Shown here: positions 35,309 to 62,576 of the stretch, piece by piece
How the letters are laid out: each line of letters begins with the position of its first letter
Position numbering within the stretch: the stretch's first letter is position 1
Source of the DNA: Eukaryota sp. GEM-RC1
Lineage: Eukaryota
Assembly: GCA_040285855.1 (NCBI GenBank)
Contig: JAUFOQ010000005.1
Coordinates: 2,170,001 to 2,234,000, forward strand
Direction: 5' to 3'
DNA length: 64,000 bases
Notes under the pieces: model-generated
What the model saw: only the letters and a program-made list of their open reading frames with translations
Databases searched by the model: none
Told to the model about the DNA's origin: nothing
Made by a program: the position numbers and the translations under genes

Positions 35309-35495
35309 TGTGTCGTTTGTCATATATGATTTATAAAGACATTTGATTGTAATTAAATGAATAAAATTAGGAATTACTTATCGTTTTAAAATTCTGTTAG
35401 AAATCGTCGTCTGACTCAGATCAAGTTGTATCTTGATGGTAGTTCCAATTTCAGTCGTTACTATAATATAATAGAACATCCCCTGGAGTAGCAGA

Positions 35496-38400: not shown

Positions 38401-38577
38401 CTGCGGTGTTTTTTGACGTCCTTTAAAATCCAAGAGCTTATTTTAAAAAACTGCGGGTTTACGGGCGAAGCAATCAAAGTTTTGAATGACTTTATCAAGC
38501 TCGATAGTCCATTGACTTCTCTTGACCTCAATGAATGTGATCTATCTGAGGATGTTTTTAGAGCACTTGGTAAGTAA
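35496..38577 (+). pseudogene. Large divergent LRR gene, multiply disrupted
   Basis: Consecutive ORFs with LTSVDFSDC, LRKLELIFC and SP..ID...G.F.FSP repeats. The N-terminal region (FGFVSQLLFDSSLTAV) resembles the 28-aa LRR family N-domain. Most breaks are shared with the inverted copy. Confidence 0.7.
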
Positions 38578-39034
38578 GTTATAGATTGATTAATTGAATT
38601 CTTTCAATCATTATTTCTGATTTTATAATGATTAGTTTTAAGTTCCAACTTTCTTTTTATTGTGATCTAATACCAGAAATACATCAAGTGTAAGGACAGT
38701 TTCTGATAGTGTTGCTAATTAGATATCTACACAAAAGTTATGTATAGTGATATGTTGCCCTATTAACAATCATTGCATATATTCCTATTCAAACTGTTGT
38801 TTTTATTACATTCCTTCCTCTTCAAACACATTAGACTCCTACTTAGCCTTACAGAATACTTATTTAAACAGATGCTATCAAGTTTATCCATTTGAAGTCC
38901 ACTTGAAAAGGAACAACATTTGTCTTTACTGGAATTGTGGTTTAAAACAACAACAAGAGACATCATGAGAGACGTCAACACATGCAACACCACCTTGACT
39001 TAACCCAAAGAACTTTATCTTCCCATTTAAATTT

Positions 39035-41285
39035 GGGATTTATGCAGATTTCATCACTAATATACATTAATTGCATTTTTCATCTAATATTACTTTATTT
39101 TGCAATCATTGTTTCAACTCATAAAACCTATTTCGTTGGACAGTTTCTCCTGTCATGACCAACTTGGTCACAATTTCTACACTTACGTTGTCGTGGTCTT
39201 GGTGCTGAACCATCTACTACTGTTGGTATCATACTGCTGGCACCTTGCTGCAACACAATCCACTCTGGGCAGTTTCTTCTGTCGTGCCTAATAATTCTAC
39301 AATGACCACATCTACGTGGGGAGAGAGGCATTGCTTCCTGATTCTCTTCCGTTGCTGCTGCGTCAGGTTCTACTTCTTCACTGTCGCTACTCGCATCCTT
39401 CTCATCGAATCTCTTTTGATTAAAGCGTTTAGTACGTGAGTACTTGTCCTTACGTGAAATTGGCGGACGACCTGGCATTACTGTATCTAAAGGAGGAAAC
39501 ACATCACTTTCTAGTTCTTCGATATTCCTTCTATAGTCGATTGGATAAAATTCGCCATCATACGTCTTCTTAAAATTAGTAACTAAATAATAGGGAGACA
39601 CTAAAGATCTGCGGTGAATTCTAACACGTCTCGAAACTGACATTACGTGAATACATGGCACATCATGTTGTTTCCAGAATCCGCAACTGCACGTTTTGTA
39701 CTTCAGATCCACAGAAAACACAAATTCGTTTTCTCTCACGGAATACAAATTGTCGGAGAACGTGGTTACTTCTAAACTGCGAGCTCTCAATATCGACGGC
39801 AACAAATACTCTTCAACATCATCAACGAATTCTCCATGCATCTTCATTGATTCATCTTTTCTTCTTCTGAACAAATGAGTCATTGCTTCAAAGATACCGT
39901 TAACCATTGAAGTCACTGGCAAAGAGCGAACTGGAAGAAGCCATGCATTTAAGGATTCAATGATATTGGAGGTGAGTTGTCCATATCTATTCCCTTCAAA
40001 GTGTACTGTCGACCAAGATTCTTTCGGAGCTGACTCTTCCAAATAAGTATAACCCACTGGGCACTGGATTTGAAGGAGCTGCCAATAGCGGTCAAATTCG
40101 TTTAACGTACTCGCTCTTGCACATTTCCAAAACAATTTCATTGCTTTCTTTCCACCTCTGGACGAGAGATTGTCACTGAGATGTTTACAGCACACAGAGT
40201 GGTAGGTTTCGTCACCAAAAACTTCGACCAGCGTACGGGATATGGCTGGATTTCTGTCACTAATAAATACTGTTTTGTCGTTGATTGCAAAATTGTCATT
40301 CAAATTCTCCAAAAAGCTTCTCCAATTTATTACATTTTCCGTTCGAGTAATTTCAAAAGCTATAGGAAAGAAATGTCCGTTGGCATCAATGCCAGCAGCA
40401 GCCAACAATATTCCCTTGTATTTGGACCTCAGATGAGTTCCATCTATCACGATAACAGGCCTTAAAAACTCAAATCCTTTCACAAGAGGTTGAAAAGTAA
40501 AGAAAAAGCGCTCAAATGTGCCATCAGGTGCAACATTCAGCTTAAAAGGAGAGTCAGGATTAGTGGAGTTGAGACTTTGGAAAAGGGTTCCAGAAAGGTG
40601 TATGAGGTATCTAAAGAACCATAAAGTAGTTCGTTAGTGGCCTCTAGAGCTCGACAGGCTTTACTCGGACTTATATCAATAAAGTACTTGGTTTTCAGCT
40701 TCCTAGCAAATACAGATGGACTGGTAATCTTTCCACCTCTTACTTCTTCTGCCATTAAAATGGCACAGATTTGTTTAGGCAAGGTCGTAAAACATAAGGA
40801 TTGGCAGGAAGCAATGTGATCGACAAACTTTCTTATTTCCCATTCGTGGGTGTCTGTGTCCTGAAAACAGTGGATGTAACAGGGACAAGGTGTAGAGGAG
40901 CCACATCGTATATCCCAACGGTTCTGGTTTTTCTGAGTTATGTCGAAGCTTTTATCACTCGAAAGGAACCAAGAGTAAACATCATGCTGCAAGTGTTGGA
41001 TGTTTGTATAAGAATGACCTTGTTGAAGAGTTGTATTAGTTGTAGTCATTAGTAAAAGAGTATTGATGTTAAATGAATTGTTATTTACTTATGTGATGTA
41101 AATTGACGATTTCCCTAGGTTTTATGAGTTGAAACAATGATTGCAAAATAAAGTAATATTAGATGAAAAATGCAATTAATGTATATTAGTGATGAAATCT
41201 GCATAAATCCCTAATGTATATTAGTGATGAAATCTGCATAAATCCCATTGTTATTTACTTATGTGATGTAAATTGACGATTTCCC
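39035..41285 (-). mobile_element. MULE/MuDR-type transposon copy 1 (39035-41115) plus stacked terminal fragments
   Basis: GGG...CCC imperfect TIRs. 9-bp TSD TTTAAATTT at 39026-39034 and 41286-41294. Confidence 0.92.
39128..41049 (-). CDS. MULE transposase (~640 aa; 1-bp slip at A-run near 40581)
   Basis: IVIDGTH, FISDRN, CCKH, TSNIIES (DDE core), SWIM finger CSCGFWKQHDVPCIH, and two CX2CX3HX4C knuckles. Confidence 0.92.
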
Positions 41286-41315
41286 TTTAAATTTTGGATT
41301 CCCACGATATCCAAC

Positions 41316-43541
41316 ATGCACCTGTTTCTACTCTTTATAGGCTTGATATGCTCTGTTTCATCCAACGTTGCTGATATTGAGTCTGAAACACCGTCTATCC
41401 CTCATGTTACGATTACATCGGATCCCACCGATATCGTATCTCAACTCCTTCTTAATAAGCGAAGTCAAGTTCTCACGGACAAGCTCATTGTATTCCACGA
41501 TCACAATTATCCTTGTCATTCTGCTTTCCTCTCCTCCTTCAGTTCAGTTCTGAGAGAGAAACTCTTGGAAGCCGATTCTGAAGTAAACTTCCCTGAACGA
41601 GACTCTATCATTCCCAATGCCGCTCTTCTCTTCCAAATCCTCGATTACTGCTATGGAGAACCCTTCGAGCTCACGCTTAATAACATGGGCATCGTGCTTA
41701 CCTTGTGTTCCTCCCTGCAGCTCCCCTCCTTAGCAAATCCCATCCATAAGATTATTTCTGAAGGATTTTCTAAGCCAGTTAGCCTTCAGTTGAAACCCGC
41801 AGAAGTTGTCCAACAACTCTACTCAAGTGTACAACGTGACGTGGTGATGAATTACAAGGAAAAGTCTTTCGCTATAAGCTCTCTGACGTTGATTTCAGTT
41901 TCAGAATATTTTAAAAATCTGTTACCTTTGAATTTCTCTCATTCTGAAGAAATGATTTTTGCATATGATCAAGAATTTCCCGATGTTTCAGCTCCAAATT
42001 TTGAAATCTTTGTCAATTATTTCCACGGGAAGTCGTTTGTTCTTGATGTTGATAACGTTATTGATTTTTATCAATTGACAGTCTTTTTTCAAGTAGAAAA
42101 AGTTAAACAAGCTTGTAATTCATTTGTTTCTACGCTTTCTTCTGCTGAAGATATTCTCTTTTGCTCAAAACTATTTCGGAACGGAACATTTTAAATTTTT
42201 TAGAAGAAAATTTTGAAACTTTTGTCCGACTTAAAAACAGTTCCAACCATGATTCTGTTTTTCCTTTACCTCTTCCTTTTATTTCACTTTTGATTGAAGA
42301 AGTTCAAACTTCTTGGTTGTTGAAATGTTTAACTTTGTCTGTCAATTCCGATGTTTTCAAAAATGATTACTCTACGTTAACTCAAATATTTGAAAAATGA
42401 TTGTCACAGATCAAAATATTCATGATACTTACATTTGTCTACAACCTTTATTTAATCAACAGTATCTACATGAATTTCTTTTAAGCTGGACAATGAAAAA
42501 AGCTTTTCCAGGGATTACTGATGTTACTACAATTCCTGATGAATGGTTTTTAGGTGGGTTATCTCAATGGTGTTTTTACGAGTGGGAGAAGAAAATTTTA
42601 AATATTGACTTCTTTGTTCAGAATTTCTCACTTGTCATTGATGAAAAGATTTGATGGCTATTGAAAATTATCCTTTTCTTACACCTGAAATTCTCAAAAA
42701 TTTAAAATCCATTCTACCTCCGTCGTATGACTTATTTCTAGTTAAATGTTTGGTTAAATCATGGAAGAACACAAAACTGTGGACTGTTGAAGATTTTGAG
42801 GACGTGTTTTTTAATTATGATTTTCAGTCTGGGGGAGATGGTGTTGAAATTTTAAATATTCTTTCAAACCTTTTGACTGACTCACGACTTACCAATCGAC
42901 TTACTGTCAATTTATTGAACCATTCTTTGGGTGCTCTTAATTATCACCACAAAGAATTAAAAGCAATGAAGCAACAAAACGTCATTTTAACTAACGAAGT
43001 CAAGTTATTAAAAGAATCTATTCTACCTTGGCTTAAAAGACTGCAAGAAAGAGAGGAAGAACGTCTACAGTTTGAAGCTAGTATTGGTACTTTTAATCCT
43101 GATAATTGTTGCTCGTGTTTAACGTTGTTTGAAAACAATCATGTTGTTAAAACAGAACGTTATAATAATGGTCACAACAGTTTTGTAGAAGTTAATCTTC
43201 CCGACAATCATTCAGTTAAATTTACTAGATTGGATGACATTGATGACGGTCATACTGATTCAATTGGTTGGAAAGATAGCAGCGGTCTTTCAAACAATGT
43301 TATGGCTTTCCCTGGACTTTTTACTAGAGGTGATGGTAGTAGAGGATCTTTCACACCTCCAAGGCCAAAGTTTCCTCCAATTACTAAAGGAGAATCAGTT
43401 GTGGTAAGTTTTGCTTATGGTAAGGCACACTTTAAACCGTCTACTTGTACAACTACTTTTAGTGTCGAAATACCTACTAATTTAATTTTTGGAATGTCCA
43501 TTCCTTGGGAAAATCATGAATGGAAAGTAGAACGTGTTTGA
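41316..43541 (+). CDS. Signal-peptide-like + tandem BTB/POZ-like protein, paralog B (frameshifts at homopolymers)
   Basis: Highly similar to paralog A up to NYHHKELK, then carries a distinct but homologous C-terminal domain. Confidence 0.72.
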
Positions 43542-43755
43542 TTAGATTGAATACTTATTGTAAAATTTAAGTCGGGTTTTTTCAAGATAGCTACTCAAAT
43601 AAATCACATTTGTCAATCAAATCTAAAAAACGTTAAACATTGAAAAACGGTATTGATGAAATGCACTGTGATCGGAAATGGAAAAACATTGAACGATTTT
43701 ACCAAATGATCAGGTACTTCTCGTTTTTGTTATACAAAAGGTGGTTATTCACAGA

Positions 43756-43842
43756 AGTGTGGTTACGCTAGTATTTTTGAAAAAACTATTATTTTTAAAT
43801 AATTTAATTTAAATTTTTGAAAAAAACTAGCGTAACCACACT
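43756..43842. repeat. Perfect 17-bp inverted repeat around an AT-rich spacer (possible micro-MITE)
   Basis: AGTGTGGTTACGCTAGT (43756-43772) and ACTAGCGTAACCACACT (43826-43842). Confidence 0.75.
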
Positions 43843-45678
43843 GGTGAAATGATGTTGTTCAAATCTTACTACCATCAATCTGTCAGGAAATTGTATCAGT
43901 AATGAAGGTGCGTTAGAATTGATGGAATTTTTATAATTTGAATGTTCAATTGCAACGGTTAATCTTCAAAGTAATCATTTTGATTCTGGAAACAATGGAA
44001 TTTATTAGAAAATTCTCATTGAATAGGATATTTGTTTAATACAATATGTTCTTAGATTGGCTTTTTCAATCATCATTTTCGATCATCGAATATACAACCT
44101 TATACTTGTGGATTTGATTCGATTAATTAATGATACAGTAAAACTCTATACCACTAAATTTGTTCCAAAACTAGCCAATGTTGGATTTATTTGACTCTAT
44201 TCCAAAGTTGGTCAATCAAAATTTCTTTGATGGGTTATCTTCATTGGTTTCAACAACATGCGATAACCATATTATACTTTGAGCATTACAACACACGGAA
44301 AATTAGTCAAGTTTTCACTGGTGAAACTAGGTTCTAGCATTACAGTATTCTTGAAGTACAGTTTTTGTATTTTAATAAAAAATTATTTAAATAGGTTACT
44401 TTTTATCCAAACAAAGTGTACTTAAGTGTAAATGAAATCACAAAACTTCTTTAATACAATATGTTCTTAGATTGGTTTTTTTAACTTATAAGTGAGAATT
44501 TTTCAAGAAAGTTTTTGAAAAGATCAGAGATCAATCAGAACATCACCATAATTTAACTTTAAAAGAAGAGAACTGATAATTAATATAATTTATTCAAAGA
44601 TTGAAAAGAATCAGAATAAAACAAAACTAAATAATGTACTTACTTAAACCAAGGAATGACATTCCTGTCCTTAGGGAAGTACCCATCGTCAGACAAGAAA
44701 ACTTCATCGTCCTTCAAAGGTCTAAGGGCATAGAGACCAACCAGCTTTTCCCCGTTCACAAACAAATCAAAATATATCAAAATTGGTACCAGTCAAAAAT
44801 TCTAAAAATATTAATAATTCTAAAAGTGTGAATAATTCCAGTAAATCGTCGTTCAATGATCAATTGTCGTACATGTGGTTATGCCATCACCTTTTTCAAG
44901 GAAAACGTCACCACCTTTTTTCAAGGTGCTAGCATAAACACACTCACTGAATCAAGCAAAAATGTTCCTAGAGTGTCTTGAAAATATACTTTGTCAAAGT
45001 ATTAACTCCAATTGTACTCTTTTGGTAATATGTTTAACCTTTAAATAACTTTAACTTTGCCTTTTTAAAGACGGTACGGTATAGCACGCGACCAGGTAAA
45101 AAACGAAGACAGTAACTTAACACAACCGTATTATCTAATCCTTTCCTGATTTTGATTTTGAATATTTTCAAACATAGATTCCCCATTATAATCCATAAAC
45201 GGACGGTTCAAGACAAATTTTAATTATTGTAAAATAAAATCTATCATTTGCTAACAAGAACCCAGACACGTTGTTCATTTTAAGAAATTGCATATGGTGA
45301 TCTCACTCCACAAACTTACTGTGAATATTGTGTCACTCTCAACCAAGAACTCAACACTGACTGTTAAATCGATTTGGATGTGAAGGTCACGTTGAATCGG
45401 TACATTATTGAGATATTCAATGATGTGACACGTCATCAAAAAGCACAATTCGTTACGATAAAGTCGGTCAATGATATACACTAGCATTTATTAAATGCAA
45501 CAACATGTCATTTTGAGGACAAGCATCAGAATGTCTGCAGGAATGATTCATGATGAAAGCAATAGATTCACCACCAATACTGATCTTCCGGAGATTTCGA
45601 ATGGTTCATGGTGTTAATATCAAGTTGAGGATAAAAGACAGTTGGACGTTTGAAAAGAAGACATTTCTTGATTCATCA

Positions 45679-46600
45679 ATGACTACACCACGTCCTAAAC
45701 ATTTGTTGAAAAGGAGTCGCTCATCCCTTCCAAGCTTCTCCTCCGTGATGTCTAACTGTGACGAACTGTCTGTATTGCCTTCAACCACAGATTCTCCCTC
45801 TAAACGTGTCCATGTTCAGCAGACTTTGTTGATTCTGATCCATCTCCACTTGCTTAGACGTTTTCTCAAGGATACTCTTGAAAACAATCACGATCGAACT
45901 AAGCATCAACTATCTGCTTTGAAAAGAACATTATCTGCATTCTTTGGACAAGTTGGCTATGTAAGTAATCACTTCCTTGATTCTTCATTCCAAGCAGTTA
46001 AAGTGTTTTTTCAATTACACACCTTTCATGCTGATCTTGAACACCTTCATAAACTAATTCCACTTGCTTCTTTCTTTGGAGCAGATCTACAATCTGTTTT
46101 CTTGCACCCTGCTGGAAATTTAGAAATTGAGAAGTTTCTTAATTATTCTGGTATAATTACAGGATTGAGAATCGAACTAAGGGAACCCTCTGATTTAGAG
46201 TTTCTAAACAATTCTTCTTCTTTATTTCCACGTCTTAAGCAACTAGAATTAAAAGTAACGAGACGAAACGCCTCTGTTTCTATGTTATTGATTGAAGCGT
46301 TGAAAACCAATACTACGGTTACAAGTGTTAATCTAGGTAGCAACTCTATTGGAGATGTAGGTGCCAGAGCTTTGGCAGAGGCGTTAATAGTTAATTCTTG
46401 TGTAACAAGTGTTGGTCTTCAATCTAACTCTATTGGAGATGAAGGTGCCAGAGCTTTGGCAGAGGCGTTAATAGTTAATTCTTGTGTAACAAGTGTTGGT
46501 CTTCAATCTAACTCTATTGGAGATGAAGGTGTCAGAGCTTTGGCAGATGCGTTGAAAGTTAATGCTTCAGTTACAAGTGTTGATTTGAGTTTAAACTCTA
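45679..46600 (+). pseudogene. 28-aa LRR family member 6, truncated in repeat 4 by a MULE end
   Basis: MTTPRPKH start. The frame ...VDLSLNS runs directly into GGGAAATCGTC at 46601. Confidence 0.85.
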
Positions 46601-48506
46601 GGGAAATCGTCAATTTACATCACATAAGTAAATAACAATTCATTTAACATCAATACTCTTTTACTAATGACTACAACTAATACAACTCTTAAACAAGGTC
46701 ATTCTTATACAAACATCCAACACTTGCAGCATGATGTTTACTCTTGGTTCCTTTCGAGTGATAAAAGCTTCGACATAACTCAGAAAAACCAGAACCGTTG
46801 GGATATACGATGTGGCTCCTCTACACCTTGTCCCTGTTACATCCACTGTTTTCAGGACACAGACACCCTCGAATGGGAAATAAGAAAGTTTGTCGATCAC
46901 ATTGCTTCCTGCCAATCCTTATGTTTTACGACCTTGCCTAAACAAATCTGTGCCATTTTAATGGCAGAAGAAGTAAGAGGTGGAAAGATTACCAGTCCAT
47001 CTGTATTTGCTAGGAAGCTGAAAACCAAGTACTTTATTGATATAAGTCCGAGTAAAGCCTGTCGAGCTCTAGAGGCCACTAACGAACTACTTTATGGTTC
47101 TTTAGATACCTCATACACCTTTCTGGAACCCTTTTTCCAAAGTCTCAACTCCACTAATCCTGACTCTCCTTTTAAGCTGAATGTTGCACCTGATGGCACA
47201 TTTGAGCGCTTTTTCTTTACTTTTCAACCTCTTGTGAAAGGATTTGAGTTTTTAAGGCCTGTTATCGTGATAGATGGAACTCATCTGAGGTCCAAATACA
47301 AGGGAACATTGTTGGCTGCTGCTGGCATTGATACCAACGGACATTTCTTTCCTATAGCTTTTGAAATTACTCGAACGGAAAATGTAATAAATTGGAGAAG
47401 CTTTTTGGAGAATTTGAATGACAATTTTGCAATCAACGACAAAACAGTATTTATTAGTGACAGAAATCCAGCCATATCCCGTACGCTGGTCGAAGTTTTT
47501 GGTGAAGAAACCTACCACTCTGTGTGCTGTAAACATCTCAGTGACAATCTCTCGTCCAGAGGTGGAAAGAAAGCAATGAAATTGTTTTGGAAATGTGCAA
47601 GAGCGAGTACGTTAAACGAATTTGACCGCTATTGGCAGCTCCTTCAAATCCAGTGCCCAGTGGGTTATACTTATTTGGAAGAGTCAGCTCCGAAAGAATC
47701 TTGGTCGACAGTACACTTTGAAGGGAATAGATATGGACAACTCACCTCCAATATCATTGAATCCTTAAATGCATGGCTTCTTCCAGTTCGCTCTTTGCCA
47801 GTGACTTCAATGGTTAACGGTATCTTTGAAGCAATGACACATTTGTTCAGAAGAAGAAAAGATGAATCAATGAAGATGCATGGAGAATTCGTTGATGATG
47901 TTGAAGAGTATTTGTTGCCGTCCGACAATTTGTATTCCGTGAGAGAAAACGAATTTGTGTTTTCTGTGGATCTGAAGTACAAAACGTGCAGTTGCGGATT
48001 CTGGAAACAACATGATGTGCCATGTATTCACGTAATGTCAGTTTCGAGACGTGTTAGAATTCACCCCAGATCTTTAGTGTCTCCCTATTATTTAGTTACT
48101 AATTTTAAGAAGACGTATGATGGCGAATTTTATCCAATCGACTATAGAAGGAATATCGAAGAACTAGAAAGTGATGTGTTTCTCCTTTAGATACAGTAAT
48201 GCCAGGTCGTCCGCCAATTTCACGTAAGGACAAGTACTCACGTACTAAACGCTTTAATCAAAGAGATTCGATGAGAAGGATGCGAGTAGCGACGGTGAAG
48301 AAGTAGAACCTGACGCAGCAGCAACGGAAGAGAATCGAAATGTCTCACGTAGATGTGGTCATTGTAGAATTATTGGGCACGACAGGAAACTGCCCAGAGT
48401 GGATTGCATAGTAGATGGTTCAGCACCAAGACCACGACAACGTAAGTGTAGAAATTGTGACCAAGTTGGTCATGACAGAAGAAACTGTCCAACGAAATAG
48501 GTTTTA
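46601..48506 (+). mobile_element. MULE copy 2 (ends at internal 9-mer TAGGTTTTA; 39-bp in-frame deletion, degraded 3' part)
   Basis: ORF 46667-48190 (LPS|DNLY deletion). Joined tail-to-tail to copy 3. Confidence 0.9.
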
Positions 48507-50588
48507 GGGATTTATGCAGATTTCATCACTAATATACATTAATTGCATTTTTCATCTAATATTACTTTATTTTGCAATCATTGTTTCAACTCATAAAACC
48601 TATTTCGTTGGACAGTTTCTCCTGTCATGACCAACTTGGTCACAATTTCTACACTTACGTTGTCGTGGTCTTGGTGCTGAACCATCTACTACTGTTGGTA
48701 TCATACTGCTGGCACCTTGCTGCAACACAATCCACTCTGGGCAGTTTCTTCTGTCGTGCCCAATAATTCTACAATGACCACATCTACGTGGGGAGAGAGG
48801 CATTGCTTCCTGATTCTCTTCCGTTGCTGCTGCGTCAGGTTCTACTTCTTCACCGTCGCTACTCGCATCCTTCTCATCGAATCTCTTTGATTAAAGCGTT
48901 TAGTACGTGAGTACTTGTCCTTACGTGAAATTGGCGGACGACCTGGCATTACTGTATCTAAAGGAGGAAACACATCACTTTCTAGTTCTTCGATATTCCT
49001 TCTATAGTCGATTGGATAAAATTCGCCATCATACGTCTTCTTAAAATTAGTAACTAAATAATAGGGAGACACTAAAGATCTGGGGTGAATTCTAACACGT
49101 CTCGAAACTGACATTACGTGAATACATGGCACATCATGTTGTTTCCAGAATCCGCAACTGCACGTTTTGTACTTCAGATCCACAGAAAACACAAATTCGT
49201 TTTCTCCTCACGGAATACAAATTGTCGGAGAACGTGGTTACTTCTAAACTGCGAGCTCTCAATATCGACGGCAACAAATACTCTTCAACATCATCAACGA
49301 ATTCTCCATGCATCTTCATTGATTCATCTTTTCTTCTTCTGAACAAATGAGTCATTGCTTCAAAGATACCGTTAACCATTGAAGTCACTGGCAAAGAGCG
49401 AACTGGAAGAAGCCATGCATTTAAGGATTCAATGATATTGGAGGTGAGTTGTCCATATCTATTCCCTTCAAAGTGTACTGTCGACCAAGATTCTTTCGGA
49501 GCTGACTCTTCCAAATAAGTATAACCCACTGGGCACTGGATTTGAAGGAGCTGCCAATAGCGGTCAAATTCGTTTAACGTACTCGCTCTTGCACATTTCC
49601 AAAACAATTTCATTGCTTTCTTTCCACCTCTGGACGAGAGATTGTCACTGAGATGTTTACAGCACACAGAGTGGTAGGTTTCTTCACCAAAAACTTCGAC
49701 CAGCGTACGGGATATGGCTGGATTTCTGTCACTAATAAATACTGTTTTGTCGTTGATTGCAAAATTGTCATTCAAATTCTCCAAAAAGCTTCTCCAATTT
49801 ATTACATTTTCTGTTCGAGTAATTTCAAAAGCTATAGGAAAGAAATGTCCGTTGGTATCAATGCCAGCAGCAGCCAACAATGTTCCCTTGTATTTGGACC
49901 TCAGATGAGTTCCATCTATCACGATAACAGGCCTTAAAAACTCAAATCCTTTCACAAGAGGTTGAGAAGTAAAGAAAAAGCGCTCAAATGTGCCATCAGG
50001 TGCAACATTCAGCTTAAAAGGAGAGTCAGGATTAGTGGAGTTGAGACTTTGGAAAAAGGGTTCCAGAAAGGTGTATGAGGTATCTAAAGAACCATAAAGT
50101 AGTTCGTTAGTGGCCTCTAGAGCTCGACAGGCTTTACTCGGACTTATATCAATAAAGTACTTGGTTTTCAGCTTCCTAGCAAATACAGATGGACTGGTAA
50201 TCTTTCCACCTCTTACTTCTTCTGCCATTAAAATGGCACAGATTTGTTTAGGCAAGGTCGTAAAACATAAGGATTGGCAGGAAGCAATGTGATCGACAAA
50301 CTTTCTTATTTCCCATTCGTGGGTGTCTGTGTCCTGAAAACAGTGGATGTAACAGGGACAAGGTGTAGAGGAGCCACATCGTATATCCCAACGGTTCTGG
50401 TTTTTCTGAGTTATGTCGAAGCATTTATCACTCGAAAGGAACCAAGAGTAAACATCATGCTGCAAGTGTTGGATGTTTGTATAAGAATGACCTTGTTGAA
50501 GAGTTGTATTAGTTGTAGTCATTAGTAAAAGAGTATTGATGTTAAATGAATTGTTATTTACTTATGTGATGTAAATTGACGATTTCCC
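48507..50588 (-). mobile_element. MULE copy 3 (both termini present)
   Basis: GGGATTTATG...GATTTCCC. Transposase pieces at 48600-50522. Confidence 0.9.
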
Positions 50589-52678
50589 TAGGTTTTATGA
50601 GTTGAAACAATGATTGCAAAATAAAGTAATATTAGATGAAAAATGCAATTAATGTATATTAGTGATGAAATCTGCATAAATCCCTAAAACCTATTTCGTT
50701 GGACAGTTTCTCCTGTCATGACCAACTTGGTCACAATTTCTACACTTACGTTGTCGTGGTCTTGGTGCTGAACCATCTACTACTGTTGGTATCATACTGC
50801 TGGCACCTTGCTGCAACACAATCCACTCTGGGCAGTTTCCTCTGTCGTGCCCAATAATTCTACAATGACCACATCTACGTGGGGAGAGAGGCATTGCTTC
50901 CTGATTCTCTTCCGTTGCTGCTGCGTCAGGTTCTACTTCTTCACTGTCGCTACTCGCATCCTTCTCATCGAATCTCTTTTGATTAAAGCGTTTAGTACGT
51001 GAGTACTTGTCCTTACGTGAAATTGGCGGACGACCTGGCATTACTGTATCTAAAGGAGGAAACACATCACTTTCTAGTTCTTCGATATTCCTTCTATAGT
51101 CGATTGGATAAAATTCGCCATCATACGTCTTCTTAAAATTAGTAACTAAATAATAGGGAGACACTAAAGATCTGGGGTGAATTCTAACACGTCTCGAAAC
51201 TGACATTACGTGAATACATGGCACATCATGTTGTTTCCAGAATCCGCAACTGCACGTTTTGTACTTCAGATCCACAGAAAACACAAATTCGTTTTCTCTC
51301 ACGGAATACAAATTGTCGGAGAACGTGGTTACTTCTAAACTGCGAGCTCTCAATATCGACGGCAACAAATACTCTTCAACATCATCAACGAATTCTCCAT
51401 GCATCTTCATTGATTCATCTTTTCTTCTTCTGAACAAATGTGTCATTGCTTCAAAGATACCGTTAACCATTGAAGTCACTGGCAAAGAGCGAACTGGAAG
51501 AAGCCATGCATTTAAGGATTCAATGATATTGGAGGTGAGTTGTCCATATCTATTCCCTTCAAAGTGTACTGTCGACCAAGATTCTTTCGGAGCTGACTCT
51601 TCCAAATAAGTATAACCCACTGGGCACTGGATTTGAAGGAGCTGCCAATAGCGGTCAAATTCGTTTAACGTACTCGCTCTTGCACATTTCCAAAACAATT
51701 TCATTGCTTTCTTTCCACCTCTGGACGAGAGATTGTCACTGAGATGTTTACAGCACACAGAGTGGTAGGTTTCTTCACCAAAAACTTCGACCAGCGTACG
51801 GGATATGGCTGGATTTCTGTCACTAATAAATACTGTTTTGTCGTTGATTGCAAAATTGTCATTCAAATTCTCCAAAAAGCTTCTCCAACTTATTACATTT
51901 TCCGTTCGAGTAATTTCAAAAGCTATAGGAAAGAAATGTCCGTTGGTATCAATGCCAGCAGCAGCCAACAATGTTCCCTTGTATTTGGACCTCAGATGAG
52001 TTCCATCTATCACGATAACAGGCCTTAAAAACTCAAATCCTTTCACAAGAGGTTGAAAAGTAAAGAAAAAGCGCTCAAATGTGCCATCAGGTGCAACATT
52101 CAGCTTAAAAGGAGAGTCAGGATTAGTGGAGTTGAGACTTTGGAAAAGGGTTCCAGAAAGGTGTATGAGGTATCTAAAGAACCATAAAGTAGTTCGTTAG
52201 TGGCCTCTAGAGCTCGACAGGCTTTACTCGGACTTATATCAATAAAGTACTTGGTTTTCAGCTTCCTAGCAAATACAGATGGACTGGTAATCTTTCCACC
52301 TCTTACTTCTTCTGCCATTAAAATGGCACAGATTTGTTTAGGCAAGGTCGTAAAACATAAGGATTGGCAGGAAGCAATGTGATCGACAAACTTTCTTATT
52401 TCCCATTCGTGGGTGTCTGTGTCCTGAAAACAGTGGATGTAACAGGGACAAGGTGTAGAGGAGCCACATCGTATATCCCAACGGTTCTGGTTTTTCTGAG
52501 TTATGTCGAAGCTTTTATCACTCGAAAGGAACCAAGAGTAAACATCATGCTGCAAGTGTTGGATGTTTGTATAAGAATGACCTTGTTGAAGAGTTGTATT
52601 AGTTGTAGTCATTAGTAAAAGAGTATTGATGTTAAATGAATTGTTATTTACTTATGTGATGTAAATTGACGATTTCCC
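50589..52678 (-). mobile_element. MULE array unit 4 (96-bp 3' end inverted)
   Basis: TAGGTTTTA-3'end-CCC (50589-50684), then TAAAACCTA and transposase 50691-52612. Confidence 0.9.
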
Positions 52679-54728
52679 TAGGTTTTATGAGTTGAAACAA
52701 TGATTGCAAAATAAAGTAATATTAGATGAAAAATGCAATTAATGTATATTAGTGATGAAATCTGCATAAATCCCTAAAACCTATTTCGTTGGACAGTTTC
52801 TCCTGTCATGACCAACTTGGTCACAATTTCTACACTTACGTTGTCGTGGTCTTGGTGCTGAACCATCTACTACTGTTGGTATCATACTGCTGGCACCTTG
52901 CTGCAACACAATCCACTCTGGGCAGTTTCCTCTGTCGTGCCCAATAATTCTACAATGACCACATCTACGTGGGGAGAGAGGCATTGCTTCCTGATTCTCT
53001 TCCGTTGCTGCTGCGTCAGGTTCTACTTCTTCACTGTCGCTACTCGCATCCTTCTCATCGAATCTCTTTTGATTAAAGCGTTTAGTACGTGAGTACTTGT
53101 CCTTACGTGAAATTGGCGGACGACCTGGCATTACTGTATCTAAAGGAGGAAACACATCACTTTCTAGTTCTTCGATATTCCTTCTATAGTCGATTGGATA
53201 AAATTCGCCATCATACGTCTTCTTAAAATTAGTAACTAAATAATAGGGAGACACTAAAGATCTGGGGTGAATTCTAACACGTCTCGAAACTGACATTACG
53301 TGAATACATGGCACATCATGTTGTTTCCAGAATCCGCAACTGCACGTTTTGTACTTCAGATCCACAGAAAACACAAATTCGTTTTCTCTCACGGAATACA
53401 AATTGTCGGAGAACGTGGTTACTTCTAAACTGCGAGCTCTCAATATCGACGGCAACAAATACTCTTCAACATCATCAACGAATTCTCCATGCATCTTCAT
53501 TGATTCATCTTTTCTTCTTCTGAACAAATGTGTCATTGCTTCAAAGATACCGTTAACCATTGAAGTCACTGGCAAAGAGCGAACTGGAAGAAGCCATGCA
53601 TTTAAGGATTCAATGATATTGGAGGTGAGTTGTCCATATCTATTCCCTTCAAAGTGTACCGTCGACCAAGATTCTTTCGGAGCTGACTCTTCCAAATAAG
53701 TATAACCCACTGGGCACTGGATTTGAAGGAGCTGCCAATAGCGGTCAAATTCGTTTAACGTACTCGCTCTTGCACATTTCCAAAACAATTTCATTGCTTT
53801 CTTTCCACCTCTGGACGAGAGATTGTTACTGAGATGTTTACAGCACACAGAGTGGTAGGTTTCTTCACCAAAAACTTCGACCAGCGTACGGGATATGGCT
53901 GGATTTCTGTCACTAATAAATACTGTTTTGTCGTTGATTGCAAAATTGTCATTCAAATTCTCCAAAAAGCTTCTCCAATTTATTACATTTTCCGTTCGAG
54001 TAATTTCAAAAGCTATAGGAAAGAAATGTCCGTTGGTATCAATGCCAGCAGCAGCCAACAATGTTCCCTTGTATTTGGACCTCAGATGAGTTCCATCTAT
54101 CACGATAACAGGCCTTTAAAACAACCTCAAATGTGCCTCAAGTGCAACATTCAGCTTAAAAGGAGAGTCAGGATTAGTGGAGTTGAGACTTTGGAAAAGG
54201 GTTCCAGAAAGGTGTATGAGGTATCTAAAGAACCATAAAGTAGTTCGTTAGTGGCCTCTAGAGCTCGACAGGCTTTACTCGGACTTATATCAATAAAGTA
54301 CTTGGTTTTCAGCTTCCTAGCAAATACAGATGGACTGGTAATCTTTCCACCTCTTACTTCTTCTGCCATTAAAATGGCACAGATTTGTTTAGGCAAGGTC
54401 GTAAAACATAAGGATTGGCAGGAAGCAATGTGATCGACAAACTTTCTTATTTCCCATTCGTGGGTGTCTGTGTCCTGAAAACAGTGGATGTAACAGGGAC
54501 AAGGTGTAGAGGAGCCACATCGTATATCCCAACGGTTCTGGTTTTCTGAGTTATGTCGAAGCTTTTATCACTCGAAAGGAACCAAGAGTAAACATCATGC
54601 TGCAAGTGTTGGATGTTTGTATAAGAATGACCTTGTTGAAGAGTTGTATTAGTTGTAGTCATTAGTAAAAGAGTATTGATGTTAAATGAATTGTTATTTA
54701 CTTATGTGATGTAAATTGACGATTTCCC
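52679..54728 (-). mobile_element. MULE array unit 5 (96-bp 3' end inverted; local deletion near 54115)
   Basis: Same junction at 52679-52783. Transposase pieces at 52781-54662. Confidence 0.9.
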
Positions 54729-56653
54729 TAGGTTTTATGAGTTGAAACAATGATTGCAAAATAAAGTAATATTAGATGAAAAATGCAATTAATGTATATT
54801 AGTGATGAAATCTGCATAAATCCCTAAAACCTATTTCGTTGGACAGTTTCTCCTGTCATGACCAACTTGGTCACAATTTCTACACTTACGTTGTCGTGGT
54901 CTTGGTGCTGAACCATCTACTACTGTTGGTATCATACTGCTGGCACCTTGCTGCAACACAATCCACTCTGGGCAGTTTCTGTCGTGCCCAATAATTCTAC
55001 AATGACCACATCTACGTGGGGAGAGAGGCATTGCTTCCTGATTCTCTTCCGTTGCTGCTGCGTCAGGTTCTACTTCTTCACTGTCGCTACTCGCATCCTT
55101 CTCATCGAATCTCTTTTGATTAAAGCGTTTAGTACGTGAGTACTTGTCCTTACGTGAAATTGGCGGACGACCTGGCATTACTGTATCTAAAGGAGGAAAC
55201 ACATCACTTTCTAGTTCTTCGATATTCCTTCTATAGTCGATTGGATAAAATTCGCCATCATACGTCTTCTTAAAATTAGTAACTAAATAATAGGGAGACA
55301 CTAAAGATCTGGGGTGAATTCTAACACGTCTCGAAACTGACATTACGTGAATACATGGCACATCATGTTGTTTCCAGAATCCGCAACTGCACGTTTTGTA
55401 CTTCAGATCCACAGAAAACACAAATTCGTTTTCTCTCACGGAATACAAATTGTCGGAGAACGTGGTTACTTCTAAACTGCGAGCTCTCAATATCGACGGC
55501 AACAAATACTCTTCAACATCATCAACGAATTCTCCATGCATCTTCATTGATTCATCTTTTCTTCTTCTGAACAAATGTGTCATTGCTTCAAAGATACCGT
55601 TAACCATTGAAGTCACTGGCAAAGAGCGAACTGGAAGAAGCCATGCATTTAAGGATTCAATGATATTGGAGGTGAGTTGTCCATATCTATTCCCTTCAAA
55701 GTGTACTGTCGACCAAGATTCTTTCGGAGCTGACTCTTCCAAATAAGTATAACCCACTGGGCACTGGATTTGAAGGAGCTGCCAATAGCGGTCAAATTCG
55801 TTTGTTCTACCTTTCGACATTTCCAAAACACAGAGTGGTGTTTCACCACAAACTTTCGACCAAAAGCGCAGCTGGATATGGCTGTCATAAATACTGTTTG
55901 TCGTTGATTGCAATTGTCATTCAAATTCCGCTTTCAATTATTACATTTTCGTTCGAGTTTTAGCTATAGGAAAAAGATCAATGCCAGCAGCAGCCAACAA
56001 TGTTCCCTTGTATTTGGACCTCAGATGAGTTCCATCTATCACGATAACAGGCCTTAAAAACCAAATCCTTTCACAAGAGGTTGAAAAGTAAAGAAAAAGC
56101 GCTCAAATGTGCCATCAGGTGCAACATTCAGCTTAAAAGGAGAGTCAGGATTAGTGGAGTTGAGACTTTGGAAAGGGTTCCAGAAAGGTGTATGAGGTAT
56201 CTAAAGAACCATAAAGTGTAGTGGCTCTAGAGCTCGACAGGCTTTACTCGGACTTATATCAATAAAGTACTTGGTTTTCAGCTTCCTAGCAAATACAGAT
56301 GGACTGGTAATCTTTCCACCTCTTACTTCTTCTGCCATTAAAATGGCAAATTGTGATTTGTTTAGGCTCGCAAGGATTGGCAGGAAGCAATGTGATCGAC
56401 AAACTTTCTTATTTCCCATTCGTGGGTGTCTGTGTCCTGAAAACAGTGGATGTAACAGGGACAGAGGAGCCACATCGTATATCCCAACGGTTCTGGTTTT
56501 CTGAGTTATGTCGAAGCTTTTATCACTCGAAAGGAACCAAGAGTAAACATCATGCTGCAAGTGTTGGATGTTTGTATAAGAATGACCTTGTTGAAGAGTT
56601 GTATTAGTTGTAGTCATTAGTAAAAGAGTATTGATGTTAAATGAATTGTTATT
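54729..56653 (-). mobile_element. MULE array unit 6 (poor-quality middle; 5' end cut at ATTGTTATT)
   Basis: Same junction at 54729-54833. Many indels at 55800-56470. Confidence 0.85.
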
Positions 56654-58730
56654 GGGAAATCGTCAATTTACATCACATAAGTAAATAACAATTCATTTAA
56701 CATCAATACTCTTTTACTAATGACTACAACTAATACAACTCTTCAACAAGGTCATTCTTATACAAACATCCAACACTTGCAGCATGATGTTTACTCTGGT
56801 TCCTTTCGAGTGATAAAAGCTTCGACATAACTCAGAAAACCAGAACCGTTGGGATATACGATGTGGCTCCTCTACACCTTGTCCCTGTTACATCCACTGT
56901 TTTCAGGACACAGACACCCACGAATGGGAAATAAGAAAGTTTGTCGATCACATTGCTTCCCGCCAATCCTTACGTTTTACGACCTTGCCTAAACAAATCT
57001 GTGCCATTTTAATGGCAGAAGAAGTAAGAGGTGGAAAGATTACCAGTCCATCTGTATTTGCTAGGAAGCTGAAAACCAAGTACTTTATTGATATAAGTCC
57101 GAGTAAAGCCTGCCGAGCTCTAGAGGCCACTAACGAACTACTTTATGGTTCTTTAGATACCTCATACACCTTTCTGGAACCCTTTTCCAAAGTCTCAACT
57201 CCACTAATCCTGACTCTCCTTTTAAGCTGAATGTTGCACCTGATGGCACATTTGAGCGCTTTTTCTTTACTTTTCAACCTCTTGTGAAAGGATTTGAGTT
57301 TTTAAGGCCTGTTATCGTGATAGATGGAACTCATCTGAGGTCCAAATACAAGGGAACATTGTTGGCTGCTGCTGGCATTGATGCCAACGGACATTTCTTT
57401 CCTATAGCTTTGAAATTACTCGAACGGAAAATGTAATAAATTGGAGAAGCTTTTGGAGAATTTGAATGACAATTTTGCAATCAACGACAAAACAGTATTT
57501 ATTAGTGACAGAAATCCAGCCATATCCCGTACGCTGGTCGAAGTTTTTGGTGAAGAAACCTACCACTCTGTGTGCTGTAAACATCTCAGTGACAATCTCT
57601 CGTCCAGAGGTGGAAAGAAAGCAATGAAATTGTTTTGGAAATGTGCAAGAGCGAGTACGTTAAACGAATTTGACCGCTATTGGCAGCTCCTTCAAATCCA
57701 GTGCCCAGTGGGTTATACTTATTTGGAAGAGTCAGCTCCGAAAGAATCTTGGTCGACAGTACACTTTGAAGGGAATAGATATGGACAACTCACCTCCAAT
57801 ATCATTGAATCCTTAAATGCATGGCTTCTTCCAGTTCGCTCTTTGCCAGTGACTTCAATGGTTAACGGTATCTTTGAAGCAATGACTCATTTGTTCAGAA
57901 GAAGAAAAGATGAATCAATGAAGATGCATGGAGAATTCGTTGATGATGTTGAAGAGTATTTGTTGCCGTCGATATTGAGAGCTCGCAGTTTAGAAGTAAC
58001 CACGTTCTCCGACAATTTGTATTCCGTGAGAGAAAACGAATTTGTGTTTTCTGTGGATCTGAAGTACAAAACGTGCAGTTGCGGATTCTGGAAACAACAT
58101 GATGTGCCATGTATTCACGTAATGTCAGTTTCGAGACGTGTTAGAATTCACCCCAGATCTTTAGTGTCTCCCTATTATTTAGTTACTAATTTTAAGAAGA
58201 CGTATGATGGCGAATTTTATCCAATCGACTATAGAAGGAATATCGAAGAACTAGAAAGTGATGTGTTTCCTCCTTTAGATACAGTAATGCCAGGTCGTCC
58301 GCCAATTTCACGTAAGGACAAGTACTCACGTACTAAACGCTTTAATCAAAAGAGATTCGATGAGAAGGATGCGAGTAGCGACAGTGAAGAAGTAGAACCT
58401 GACGCAGCAGCAACGGAAGAGAATCAGGAAGCAATGCCTCTCTCCCCACGTAGATGTGGTCATTGTAGAATTATTGGGCACGACAGAAGAAACTGCCCAG
58501 AGTGGATTGTGTTGCAGCAAGGTGCCAGCAGTATGATACCAACAGTAGTAGATGGTTCAGCACCAAGACCACGACAACGTAAGTGTAGAAATTGTGACCA
58601 AGTTGGTCATGACAGGAGAAACTGTCCAACGAAATAGGTTTTATGAGTTGAAACAATGATTGCAAAATAAAGTAATATTAGATGAAAAATGCAATTAATG
58701 TATATTAGTGATGAAATCTGCATAAATCCC
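56654..58730 (+). mobile_element. MULE copy 7 (inverted duplicate of copy 1)
   Basis: GGGAAATCG...ATAAATCCC followed by AAATTTAAA, the reverse complement of the copy 1 flank. Confidence 0.9.
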
Positions 58731-58955
58731 AAATTTAAATGGGAAGATAAAGTTCTTTGGGTTAAGTCAAGGTGGTGTTGCATGTGTTGACGTCTCTCAT
58801 GATGTCTCTTGTTGTTGTTTTAAACCACAATTCCAGTAAAGACAAATGTTGTTCCTTTTTCAAGTGGACTTCAAATGGATAAACTTGATAGCATCTGTTT
58901 AAATAAGTATTCTGTAAGGCTAAGTAGGAGTCTAATGTGTTTGAAGAGGAAGGAA

Positions 58956-59117
58956 GAGATGTTTATTCGGCACCCAATAAGGTAACCTTTCTACAAACTA
59001 TGAAATTGTAAAAACAAACAAATAATACTAAGATTAAATCCAAACGACTTCATCACCACCCGGTAAAAGATTACGTTTATCTACATGAACCTTCACACCA
59101 AACTTGTACAATTTCTC
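58956..59117 (-). mobile_element. 162-bp 5'-truncated RLE-type non-LTR insertion
   Basis: 11-bp direct repeat AGAGGAAGGAA at 58945-58955 and 59118-59128. Absent from the paralogous arm (~38811-38821). Sequence matches the 3' end of the 33.6-33.7 kb remnant. Confidence 0.85.
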
Positions 59118-59362
59118 AGAGGAAGGAATGTAATAAAAACAACAGTTTGAATAGGAATATATGCAATGATTGTTAATAGGGCAACATATCACTATACATA
59201 ACTTTTGTGTAGATATCTAATTAGCAACACTATCAGAAACTGTCCTTACACTTGATGTATTTCTGGTATTAGATCACAATAAAAAGAAAGTTGGAACTTA
59301 AAACTAATCATTATAAAATCAGAAATAATGATTGAAAGAATTCAATTAATCAATCTATAACT

Positions 59363-62300
59363 TACTTACCAAGTGCTCTAAAAACATCCTCAGATAGATC
59401 ACATTCATTGAGGTCAAGAGAAGTCAATGGACTATCGAGCTTGATAAAGTCATTCAAAACTTTGATTGCTTCGCCCGTAAACCCGCAGTTTTTTTAAAAA
59501 TAAGCTCTTGGATTTTAAAGGACGTCAAAAAACACCGCAGAGATACAACATCGTCAGTTGTTAATTGAGTAAAACTCTCTGGTGAATAACAAAACAAGCC
59601 ATTGTCAACACCAACAAAAGAAGGAGAAATATCAAGATCGATCACTGAATTGTTGATAGAAAGAATTTCAAATAAGGTGATTAGTCCTGCTAGTCTTGAA
59701 CTTTTCAATCCAAGGCAATCAACACGTTTAAGAGGAAGGTTTGACCTTAACGAATTTAAAAGTGAAATTATTTCCTGATTTTCAATCTCATTCTGATAAC
59801 GAATAAATGCAAGTGAAAAATCAACAAAATGAGGGAAAACATCAATAGTTGTGGGTTTGCTGACTGATGACGTCATCACTTTTGTTTCATAAACAGACAA
59901 AAGAGTGTTGATTCCAATGGAACAATTTCGAAAGCTAACCGCGTTCAAAGAAGAGTTACACAACGATTTGATTAAGTTTGAAAAAGTGTCATCCAATGTG
60001 GGAGTACAACTGTTTCTAAAAGGACCATTATGTTTTGAACAATCAAACTAAATCAATCACTGAAGTCAACAGAAGTCAATTCCTGATTGATGCTGACTGA
60101 ATCATACAATCCAACCATGTCTTCGTAAATAAATGAACACCCTCTAATAGCAAGATCTTTGATACTGAAACACGTCAGCAAAGACTGTAAAGCTAAAACT
60201 TCTGAAGATCAGTTTCCGTAGCTCTTTCTGGTAGAAATCGTAAAACACTATTTTCAATATCAATAAAATGAGGAGAAACTTGAATTGTTGGAATGAGTGT
60301 TCTAGTGGAAAATAGCTTAAAAAGAGCTAAAAGACTCATAAATCCGATGTGAAAATTGTTGAAATTATTGTTGTTTAGAAAAGAAAGAGAATGTAGGGCT
60401 TTGAGTAAGTCTGAGAAAACAACATCGGTAAAATAACTAAAGCGACAGAAATCTAGATGATTTAATCCACAGTCACTGAAGCTGACAGAAGTCAATGACT
60501 TATTGACCCTAATTAAATCACAAATAACAGGGATTGTTCTATCAAAAAGATACAACTCTTAATTGCCAGCTCTTCGATAGAACTACACTTCAAAAGAAGT
60601 TTTAGATTAGATTTCCTCAATAGTGATCGTGAACGAACATTGAAAGAACTTTCAGGAGAAAAACAGAACAAACCTTTATCAGTTTCAATCGTATACGGAG
60701 AAACATGAATATTAAGGGTTAATTTGTGAGTAGGAATCAAATTAAAGATATGTAAAAGACTTTTGAGACCAATGTTGGTATTGCTTAGATTGATCCTTTT
60801 CAAATAACAATTGGACTGACATGCATTGAGGATACATAAGATCACGTCATCATCTAGACTACAATCACTGAAGTCAACAGAAGTCAAGCAGTTATTATTC
60901 CTTATTAAATGACATAAAACGGGGATTGATTGGTGAGTAAAACTACATCCTTTTAAAAAAAGTTCTGTGATGGTAAAACACTGTAAAATCGACTGTAATA
61001 ACGAATGTTCGGTAGCAGTTATTCGAGAACAAATGTATATGTGAGTTACTGAAGAATTTGGTGGACTTGGTGAGAAATAAAACACGCCCCTGTGAATATC
61101 AATTAAATTAGGAGTCAGATCAATCCGAGATCGTACCTTTTCACTAAACATTGGTTCAAACAAGGAGAGTAGAAATTTTAAATTTAAGGAGTGAAAACAG
61201 ACTTTCTTCAGTACAGAATTCAATTCGAGAGATTTCAGAATGTGTTTAAACTGATTTAGTTCAACCCGTAAATCTTGGAGACTAAGCACAAGGAAATATT
61301 GTGTTGGACCATTTCTAATAACAACTTAACTGTCTGGTCATTGATCTGACATCAGGTAAAACAATTGACAACTCTAGTAGTGAAGTATTAGATATAAGAG
61401 ATTTAAAAATTGTTGAGAGTTCAACATTACAGAATATTAATTCAAGTTTTCTTAAAGCAGTGTTGAATTTTAACACTTTCCCAAGGTCTTCACCCTTAAA
61501 GTAAGCGAACTTAACAGAAAGTTCTCTAATAGATGAGTTGTTCTCAAGTCCATTGAATAAGGCAGAATCAAGACAACCACCAGGAAGAGTAATACTTCTA
61601 AGACTTAAACTTTTGAAAAGTGGAATAAGATCGCTTGAACACTGGATTCGAAGATTATTCAAATGAATTTTTGAAATATTTGAATTATTTGAAATTGCGG
61701 TAAATAGAATCAAAGATACTTTATTATTAATTGAGTAGTCAGAGCTAAATGAAATTGTTCTCAGGGTGTTGTTAGAATAAAACACCTCTGCCAGCGAGGC
61801 AGCTTCAGTAGAAGTAAGTGAGTGCAGACCAAGATTTAACTCTAAAATTGTTCTATTACCCATTAAAGACTTACAAAGTGCAGTAAAAGTATCTCCCTGA
61901 AAAGATGACTTCCTGGGAATGTCAAGAACTCGCAGACGTGGAAGGAAAAGAGAAGACGAATGGTCAAGTAAGTAATGTACAAAAGAAGAACTACTGATGT
62001 TAAATGAGTTATATTAGTAGTAAACTCAATAATATCTTTATCTACAAGAAAGTCATTTACAATCAGGTAAACAGAATAAACCTTTGCTTTAAAGAATGAA
62101 GTCATTGCAGAAAGTAGAACAATGTCTTTTGGGAAAACGGGAATAGTAGTTGTTCCAAGAAACAGTTGCACTGCTGTCAATGAAGAATCAAAGAATAGTT
62201 GACTTACAAAGCCAAACTTTTTAATAAATCCAACAAGTTTGTTTCCCAAACGACAGAGAGAATGTTGACGATAGTTTTGATGATTTTTTGACTACAAGAG

Positions 62301-62443
62301 AAGACTACTAGAGAAGACTTCAAGTGATGACTCAACAAGTGACAATTAATCAACACCAATAATTACTGTTGGCGGTGTAATGTTAGAAGAGGGTAATCAG
62401 TCAGTTCATCTGAGGAACAAATGGTCTTAAATGGGAGATTCAT
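59363..62443 (-). pseudogene. Inverted duplicate of the divergent LRR pseudogene
   Basis: ORFs 59454-62249 mirror 35690-38577. Confidence 0.7.
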
Positions 62444-62576
62444 TCTGCTACTCCAGGGGATGTTCTATTATATTATAGTAACGACTGAAATTGGAACTAC
62501 CATCAAGAGCAGCATGTGTGTGGTAGAAAGTTTTCAACTTGAAACTAAATCTTCTTTCAATCGTCAAACTCCTCCC

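Follow-up and report, generated by a model that had tools for sequence, protein, structure and literature searches.

A tandem array with the form of a self-insertion product inside a nest of Mutator-like elements

Self-insertion of DNA transposons is usually viewed as a dead end, and inverted tandems as incapable of array growth. How, then, does a tandem array come to be built of a unit in which both ends of a transposon are joined to a site inside it? The question is raised by a 64,000-nucleotide stretch of Eukaryota sp. GEM-RC1 (contig JAUFOQ010000005.1, positions 2,170,001 to 2,234,000; hereafter the window), which contains such an array of a Mutator-like element (MULE) at 48498–56653. Our best reading, in which the array is read from the assembly alone, is that a nest of young MULE copies was expanded by recombination and reshaped by sister-chromatid transposition in the manner of double Ds, and we hold it with moderate confidence. 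The double Ds structure consists of one copy of Ds within another in reverse orientation.

Unit and junctions of the array

Three junctions, at 50589, 52679 and 54729, are built alike: the left end of the element runs into TAGGTTTTA, the 3′ segment and the right end, followed by TAAAACCTA and the reversed open reading frame (ORF). With element positions counted along the copy at 39035–41115 (2081 bp), TAGGTTTTA and TAAAACCTA are the two strands of positions 1986–1994, the first three bases of which are the transposase stop codon. The 96-bp blocks that start at these junctions include the 9-mer and match positions 1986–2081 exactly, and the cassettes are identical in 3/3 cases. The array unit consists of positions 1986–2081 forward and 1994–1 reversed, amounting to 96 + 1994 = 2090 bp, or 2081 + 9. 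In a symbol-level model it is formally an inversion circle, having both ends, an inverted target duplication and the length of element plus target. A previous sequence-only reading had described the three identical junctions, the derivation of the two 9-mers from one internal site at the stop codon, the period of 2090 bp between 50589 and 52679 and its identity with an inversion circle, all of which we recovered. The length of 2081 bp that it gave for the first copy belongs to the copy at 39035–41115; the first copy itself (48507–50588) has 2082 bp in the assembly.

The junctions are real and exact in the assembly, which holds four copies of GATTTCCCTAGGTTTTATGAG and four of ATAAATCCCTAAAACCTATTTCG (either strand) and one of each other junction. 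A chance origin of the joins was rejected, because only 1 in 20,000 random host 15-mers is found in the element, and a head-to-tail dimer array was rejected as well, the junction 9-mers being internal element sequence and the 3′ block being flipped. The array comprises two complete periods and a third long block that ends at element position 31. The first period is 2090 bp and the second 2050 bp, because the copy at 52775–54728 has lost a net 40 bp.

The termini of the element are degenerate inverted repeats, with 12 of the first 20 and 18 of the first 30 bases matching; some MULE families have no terminal inverted repeats. PF10551 (DDE transposase, MULE family) is found above cut-off in the element's protein (E 2e-15), the transposase domains are MULE, Mutator and SWIM, with SWIM above cut-off, and there are two C-terminal knuckles, the Pfam zf-CCHC match being below cut-off. 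In addition, P0004, a family member of 640 amino acids (aa), contains residues D203, D265, CxxH and E365, which we take to be the DDE-transposase motif. Target duplications measure 9 bp both in host DNA (39026, 41286) and at two of the self-targets; those of MULEs are 8–11 bp (PMC6446971; this and the papers below are cited from excerpts). On its protein domains and target duplications the element is classed as a MULE, in agreement with the sequence-only reading. The family, 22 proteins in one 90% cluster, is young and dispersed; the 15 cluster members listed lie on contigs of four lengths, and three of them are full 640-aa proteins. Outside the family, two protein searches gave only one distant relative each (34% and 27% identity). 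The left end of the element had no exact match in metagenome contigs, none of 140 pattern matches to a related locus in metagenome contigs was confirmed, and the array junction had no match in viral contigs.

The start codon of the transposase frame lies at element position 67. The 2081-bp copies are one base short of what the 640-aa frame requires, which puts the likely length of the true element at 2082 bp and the period at 2091 bp and leaves the '+9' rule unaffected. In the assembly, the 640-aa frame is broken in all four copies in 48.5–56.7 kb, the longest frames having 462, 451, 440 and 360 aa; these breaks, mostly homopolymer indels and deletions, are likely errors. It had been proposed that each unit retains a full ORF and both termini, which is correct for the start and stop codons and for the two ends; no unbroken 640-aa frame is present in the assembly. 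The 3′ untranslated end is flipped in the unit, and all six ends from 50588 to 54824 point one way, to the right, so that excision of a single unit is not possible; only a composite that includes the end at 46601 or at 48507 could be excised. The view of the array as an amplification route is overstated, there being no excisable end pair per unit.

Self-insertion sites in a 20-kb nest

The array is part of a 20-kb MULE nest (39.0–58.7 kb) with seven long copies (E0 to E6) and 15 element ends, arranged with two host flanks, X and Y, as follows.

35431–39034, minus strand: inverted duplicate of host flank Y, truncated; over its 3604 bp it differs from 58731–62508 by 9 substitutions and has a 173-bp deletion
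39026–39034, plus strand: host 9-bp target duplication TTTAAATTT, left copy
39035–41115, minus strand: E0, full element copy, 2081 bp
41116–41211, plus strand: element positions 1986–2081 on the left end of E0, the same junction as in the array, exact match
41212–41246, plus strand: element positions 2047–2081, right end joined to the second self-target TAATGTATA, parallel insertion
41247–41285, minus strand: element positions 39–1, right end joined to the third self-target ATTGTTATT, then the outer left end
41286–41294, plus strand: host 9-bp target duplication TTTAAATTT, right copy
41295–46600, plus strand: host flank X, with a BTB gene and an LRR gene
46601–48506, plus strand: E1, element positions 1–1994, host of the nested insertion, with 10 deletions (89 bp)
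48507–50588, minus strand: E2, full element lying back-to-front between direct copies of TAGGTTTTA, 2082 bp
50589–50684, plus strand: 96-bp block 1, positions 1986–2081, exact
50685–52678, minus strand: E3, positions 1994–1, with the MULE, SWIM transposase ORF on the minus strand
52679–52774, plus strand: 96-bp block 2, exact
52775–54728, minus strand: E4, positions 1994–1, 40 bp lost
54729–54824, plus strand: 96-bp block 3, exact
54825–56653, minus strand: E5, positions 1994–31, ending in ATTGTTATT, reciprocal of the 41247 junction, with 31 deletions (144 bp)
56654–58730, plus strand: E6, full element, its right end on host duplication AAATTTAAA (58731–58739)
58731–62508, plus strand: host flank Y, the copy that runs on into a further reading frame

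The sequence-only reading had captured the real junctions and one internal 9-mer as target; it had missed the copies at 39035–41115, 46601–48506 and 56654–58730, two more self-target sites and the inverted flank duplication.

Every junction in the nest consists of an element end next to a 9-mer, either of the host or of the element's interior. Three different internal 9-mers are involved, all within 96 bp of an end. Specifically, self-target 1986–1994 has four left-end and four right-end junctions, self-target 31–39 has one left-end and one right-end junction (56653 and 41247) with an overlap of exactly 9 bp, and self-target 2047–2055 has one right-end junction; 2/3 self-targets (1986–1994 and 31–39) show both reciprocal junctions overlapping by exactly 9 bp. 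The end-proximity of 3/3 self-targets has p ~0.001 if targets are uniform and 0.025 allowing for AT-rich target choice. This pattern suggests that the transposase prefers its own end regions and is without target immunity. Copy-into-copy insertion is more likely than self-targeting within one molecule, because the paired-end complex would cover targets 26–39 bp from an end, and because Sleeping Beauty autointegration rarely hits terminal repeats, from which the excerpt reports only one recovered event (PMC3952818). Nanopore fold-back at the two hairpin centres (E1/E2 and E5/E6) was considered and rejected, as both are matched by a reciprocal junction with an overlap of exactly 9 bp.

The host target TAAACTCTA (46592–46600) and the self-target TAAAACCTA (50685–50693) are identical at 7/9 positions, and TA-N5-TA occurs in 3/5 targets, a hint of a palindromic target preference.

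If the stop-codon 9-mer were a hot spot, six hits in strictly alternating orientation would give a seven-level nest, the left half of which later collapsed. The right half of such a nest, worked out by hand, has the observed block order, and both the TA-N5-TA pattern and the 7/9 agreement would suit a preferred site. However, the element also used two other internal sites, so this one has no exclusive role; the chance of strict alternation is 1/32, on top of six hits at one site; and an allele at position 732, described below, points to one template. We consider this history very improbable.

At 46601–50684, the nest is an ordinary back-to-front insertion of one copy in another with a direct 9-bp duplication, E1 ending in TAGGTTTTA at 48498–48506, and both junction types occur there once. 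The inverted arms at 46601–50588 form a 1.9-kb hairpin. The left locus (39035–41285), in which the four ends at 41115–41285 all point right, is reproduced exactly in the symbol-level model by a four-level nest collapsed between direct repeats. The left end at 46601 cuts the LRR gene at TAAACTCTA, 5.3 kb from the original site, and with flank Y on both sides the inverted flank duplication is coupled to an element end that sits in a new target. Flank Y has two copies in the assembly and flank X one. The left copy of flank Y joins other cluster DNA at 35431 via a 2-bp overlap, and its 173-bp deletion sits between 10-bp repeats; E0 and E6 plus flanks differ by ~0.25% plus this deletion.

Origin of the array and its surroundings

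The copies in the array carry a signature of common origin. An allele at position 732 is common to E1–E4 and is not in E0 or E6, E5 being deleted there. Among the 15 listed family proteins, the residue is readable in 10, of which 3 have the array allele and 7 lack it; two of the 3 are encoded in the window, one has E3's private residues and lies on a contig of equal length to that of the window, and the array allele is missing from 5/5 readable listed proteins on other contigs. The shared allele favours one source template for the array copies and the expansion of one unit.

We propose that copies of the element served as targets for one another, at three 9-bp sites close to the ends, the donors probably being a sister chromatid or a neighbouring copy. 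The centre of the back-to-front nest would flip between its 2-kb inverted arms, which would bring two 96-bp blocks into direct orientation, and the unit would be multiplied by unequal exchange or else by pop-out of the 2090-bp circle, followed by its copying. In a symbol-level derivation, the start of the right locus follows from one nested insertion, and the unit from the flipped form of the nest. At the directly oriented ends, the left end may have attacked flank X on the sister, 5.3 kb away, placing flank Y on both sides, and a break after this attack would have healed at 35431. The order truncated Y, element, X, element, Y would be the expected remnant of such a left-end attack on the sister, break and healing. 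The layout contains both directly oriented 5′ and 3′ ends and a reverse insertion with a direct duplication. The predicted outcome is a chromosome-breaking, hairpin-RNA-producing locus, not a new source of mobile copies.

The unit would arise in one step if an excised element hit its own stop codon and the resulting 2090-bp inversion circle, with a complete transposase frame, were copied into the chromosome as a concatemer by rolling-circle copying that starts from a broken chromosomal copy. The identical junctions and the shared allele suit such an autointegration circle; inversion circles have been shown for Sleeping Beauty and piggyBac (PMC3952818), and transposition-started rolling circles with three tandem repeats have been proposed for maize Ds (PMC4270019). 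However, a target 87–96 bp from the right end implies a very tight loop, the other two self-targets (26–39 bp from an end) point to between-copy targeting, and the direct-duplication nest at 46601–50684 would need three template switches by hand count, so that we find this route unlikely. An excised circle is not needed, because a flip and unequal exchange give the 2090-bp unit too; nest and circle can be converted into one another, and autointegration is not proved by the unit alone. Of the inversion-circle concatemer put forward earlier, the amplification of one unit, as opposed to fresh insertions, stands; the circle as its source is not established, since the nest at 46601–50684 gives the unit too.

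A different concern is that the junctions are real transposase products, and that array copy number, block order and perhaps the duplicated flank arose in the library or in assembly, either by rolling-circle copying of a 2.09-kb circle in amplification or by a few-read layout of mixed cells through identical 2-kb repeats. At both hairpin centres, the left arm has more deletion events than the right (E1 vs E2, 10 vs 1; E5 vs E6, 30 vs 4; rough p 0.012 and 6e-6, the events not being independent), which speaks for such an origin, and deletions on the second hairpin arm read are a nanopore signature (PMC7229812). The excess suggests that real molecules crossed both hairpin centres, yet in few reads, of one direction, because lopsided deletions should average out with many reads of both strands. 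Likewise in favour of it, the reciprocal junctions of one event (41247 vs 56653) are separated by 15 kb and stand in reversed order. Against this, the array copies have a common allele that is not in the outer copies, the flank Y copies differ by the 9 substitutions and 173-bp deletion listed above, and, unlike in a random chimera, the DNA on the two sides of the join at 35431 comes from one gene cluster. Moreover, overlapping reads on a 2-kb repeat should be unable to make a cassette of 130 bp composed of left end, 96-bp block and right end; the cassette likely exists in some molecule, because it is too short to arise from joining reads in this way. We regard a library or assembly origin as possible but doubtful, with array copy number and block order less sure than the cassette.

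Several points weigh against the nest expanded by recombination and sister-chromatid transposition. It needs at least two recombination steps after insertion, one of them with no more than 96 bp of homology to act on; in addition, the centre at 48498–48602 must have flipped back or be mis-oriented. The partner junctions of TAATGTATA and TAAACTCTA are not in the window, nor is an excision footprint. The alleles at 1238, 1734 and 1839 are mosaic across E1–E5 and give no clean tree, and polishing can mix alleles between copies. Nest and circle being interconvertible on paper, sequence alone cannot order them, and the chromosomal array, as read from the assembly, is a putative one.

If reads confirm the locus, it would be a natural path from one reversed self-insertion to a direct tandem array in which the transposase frame is kept. 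It would also be a double-Ds-like site of breakage that occurs naturally, in a MULE from outside plants, with every junction legible to the base. If instead the circle is the true source, an autonomous DNA transposon would be able to amplify in tandem through self-insertion, here seen at three units. Should the array prove an artefact, the three sites of self-insertion remain, as a modest observation.

The window also holds a gene cluster at 5564–46635, made up of two BTB genes and at least six LRR genes with 84-bp (28-aa) repeats; many segmental duplications of 80–97% identity occur there in both orientations. The flank Y gene (35690–38577 and 59454–62249) is split into 5–6 frames in both copies; one break is common to both (128- and 182-aa frames with a one-base overlap), and the others are private; an intron, a pseudogene or sequence errors may account for them. 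A non-coding 160-bp repeat has five copies, 75–95% alike (58957–59119, 12787, 17875, 22046 and 33630). The one in flank Y is framed by direct repeats of 10 bp, and the duplicated copy of Y lacks it. A microhomology deletion is likelier than a miniature inverted-repeat transposable element as explanation of this loss, because the other 160-bp copies show no obvious inverted ends or duplication.

Elsewhere in the window, the 1.06-kb element at 31445–32503 is bounded by direct terminal repeats of 121 bp (TG...CA) and flanked by a duplication of 4 bp, CTGG. Its single frame, gag-like and 269 aa long, includes a zinc knuckle; the Pfam Retrotrans_gag match (E 0.009) is below cut-off. The element is not in the paralogous stretch near 19770 and resembles a gag-only long-terminal-repeat element. 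A relative at 67–989 (minus strand) has a frame of 256 aa that includes zf-CCHC, and its terminal repeat is 86% like that at 31445. An intact 659-aa gene of the TEL2 family (PF10193) lies at 9797–11776.

Comparison with known systems

Sister-chromatid transposition, which uses directly oriented ends as its substrate, leads from inverted Ds pairs to inverted duplications in maize and rice, and homologous recombination between the inverted copies yields inversions (PMC3239180). The present nest resembles double Ds and inverted Ds pairs in having a reverse copy in or beside a copy, directly oriented 5′ and 3′ ends, an inverted flank duplication that starts from an element end, and inversions between inverted copies. 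In contrast to double Ds, the element is a MULE and not a hAT element, three self-targets near the ends are used, the nest has expanded into a tandem array of an ORF-complete unit, and the locus is known from its sequence.

Inversion circles of Sleeping Beauty, piggyBac and Tn10 are described in the excerpt as free circles from plasmid assays and are called suicidal (PMC3952818). They share with the array unit both ends, an inverted target duplication and the length of element plus target. Here, however, the unit stands in tandem within a contig, beside a direct-duplication nest; in those assays, terminal repeats were rarely hit. Composite insertions formed by re-replication, such as bz1-m4-D6856, are similar in that element ends start a rearrangement that leads to three tandem repeats and truncated elements, and differ in that the target, as described in that excerpt, is host DNA not yet replicated and host genes are part of the repeats (PMC4270019), whereas here the target lies inside the element.

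Two closely spaced VANDAL21 MULEs undergo flips of the spacer, deletions and circle formation (PMC12312487). Like the present nest, this head-to-head pair in Arabidopsis met1 shows neighbouring MULE-family elements producing inversions, deletions, circles and end-to-host joins; unlike it, the pair consists of two separate elements with a 200-bp spacer, the events are somatic, and the excerpt contains no self-insertion tandem array. A MULE array whose unit is a self-insertion product was likewise not found described in a limited literature collection, nor in the excerpt of PMC13469147. Mu killer (PMC3440606) and Ac killer (bioRxiv 10.1101/2020.01.07.897926) have, as here, a long inverted transposase duplication downstream of a promoter. 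In contrast to those loci, the hairpin at 46601–50588 is a feature of the assembled sequence, and its silencing effect is only predicted, by likeness to them.

Finally, tandem dimers of the P element and hobo (bioRxiv 10.1101/158386) also show one transposition junction copied into an array with identical junctions. Those arrays are made of whole elements, head to tail, with the host target duplication between them. In its excerpt, that paper deems inverted tandems non-expanding, whereas here an inverted nest yields a direct repeat.

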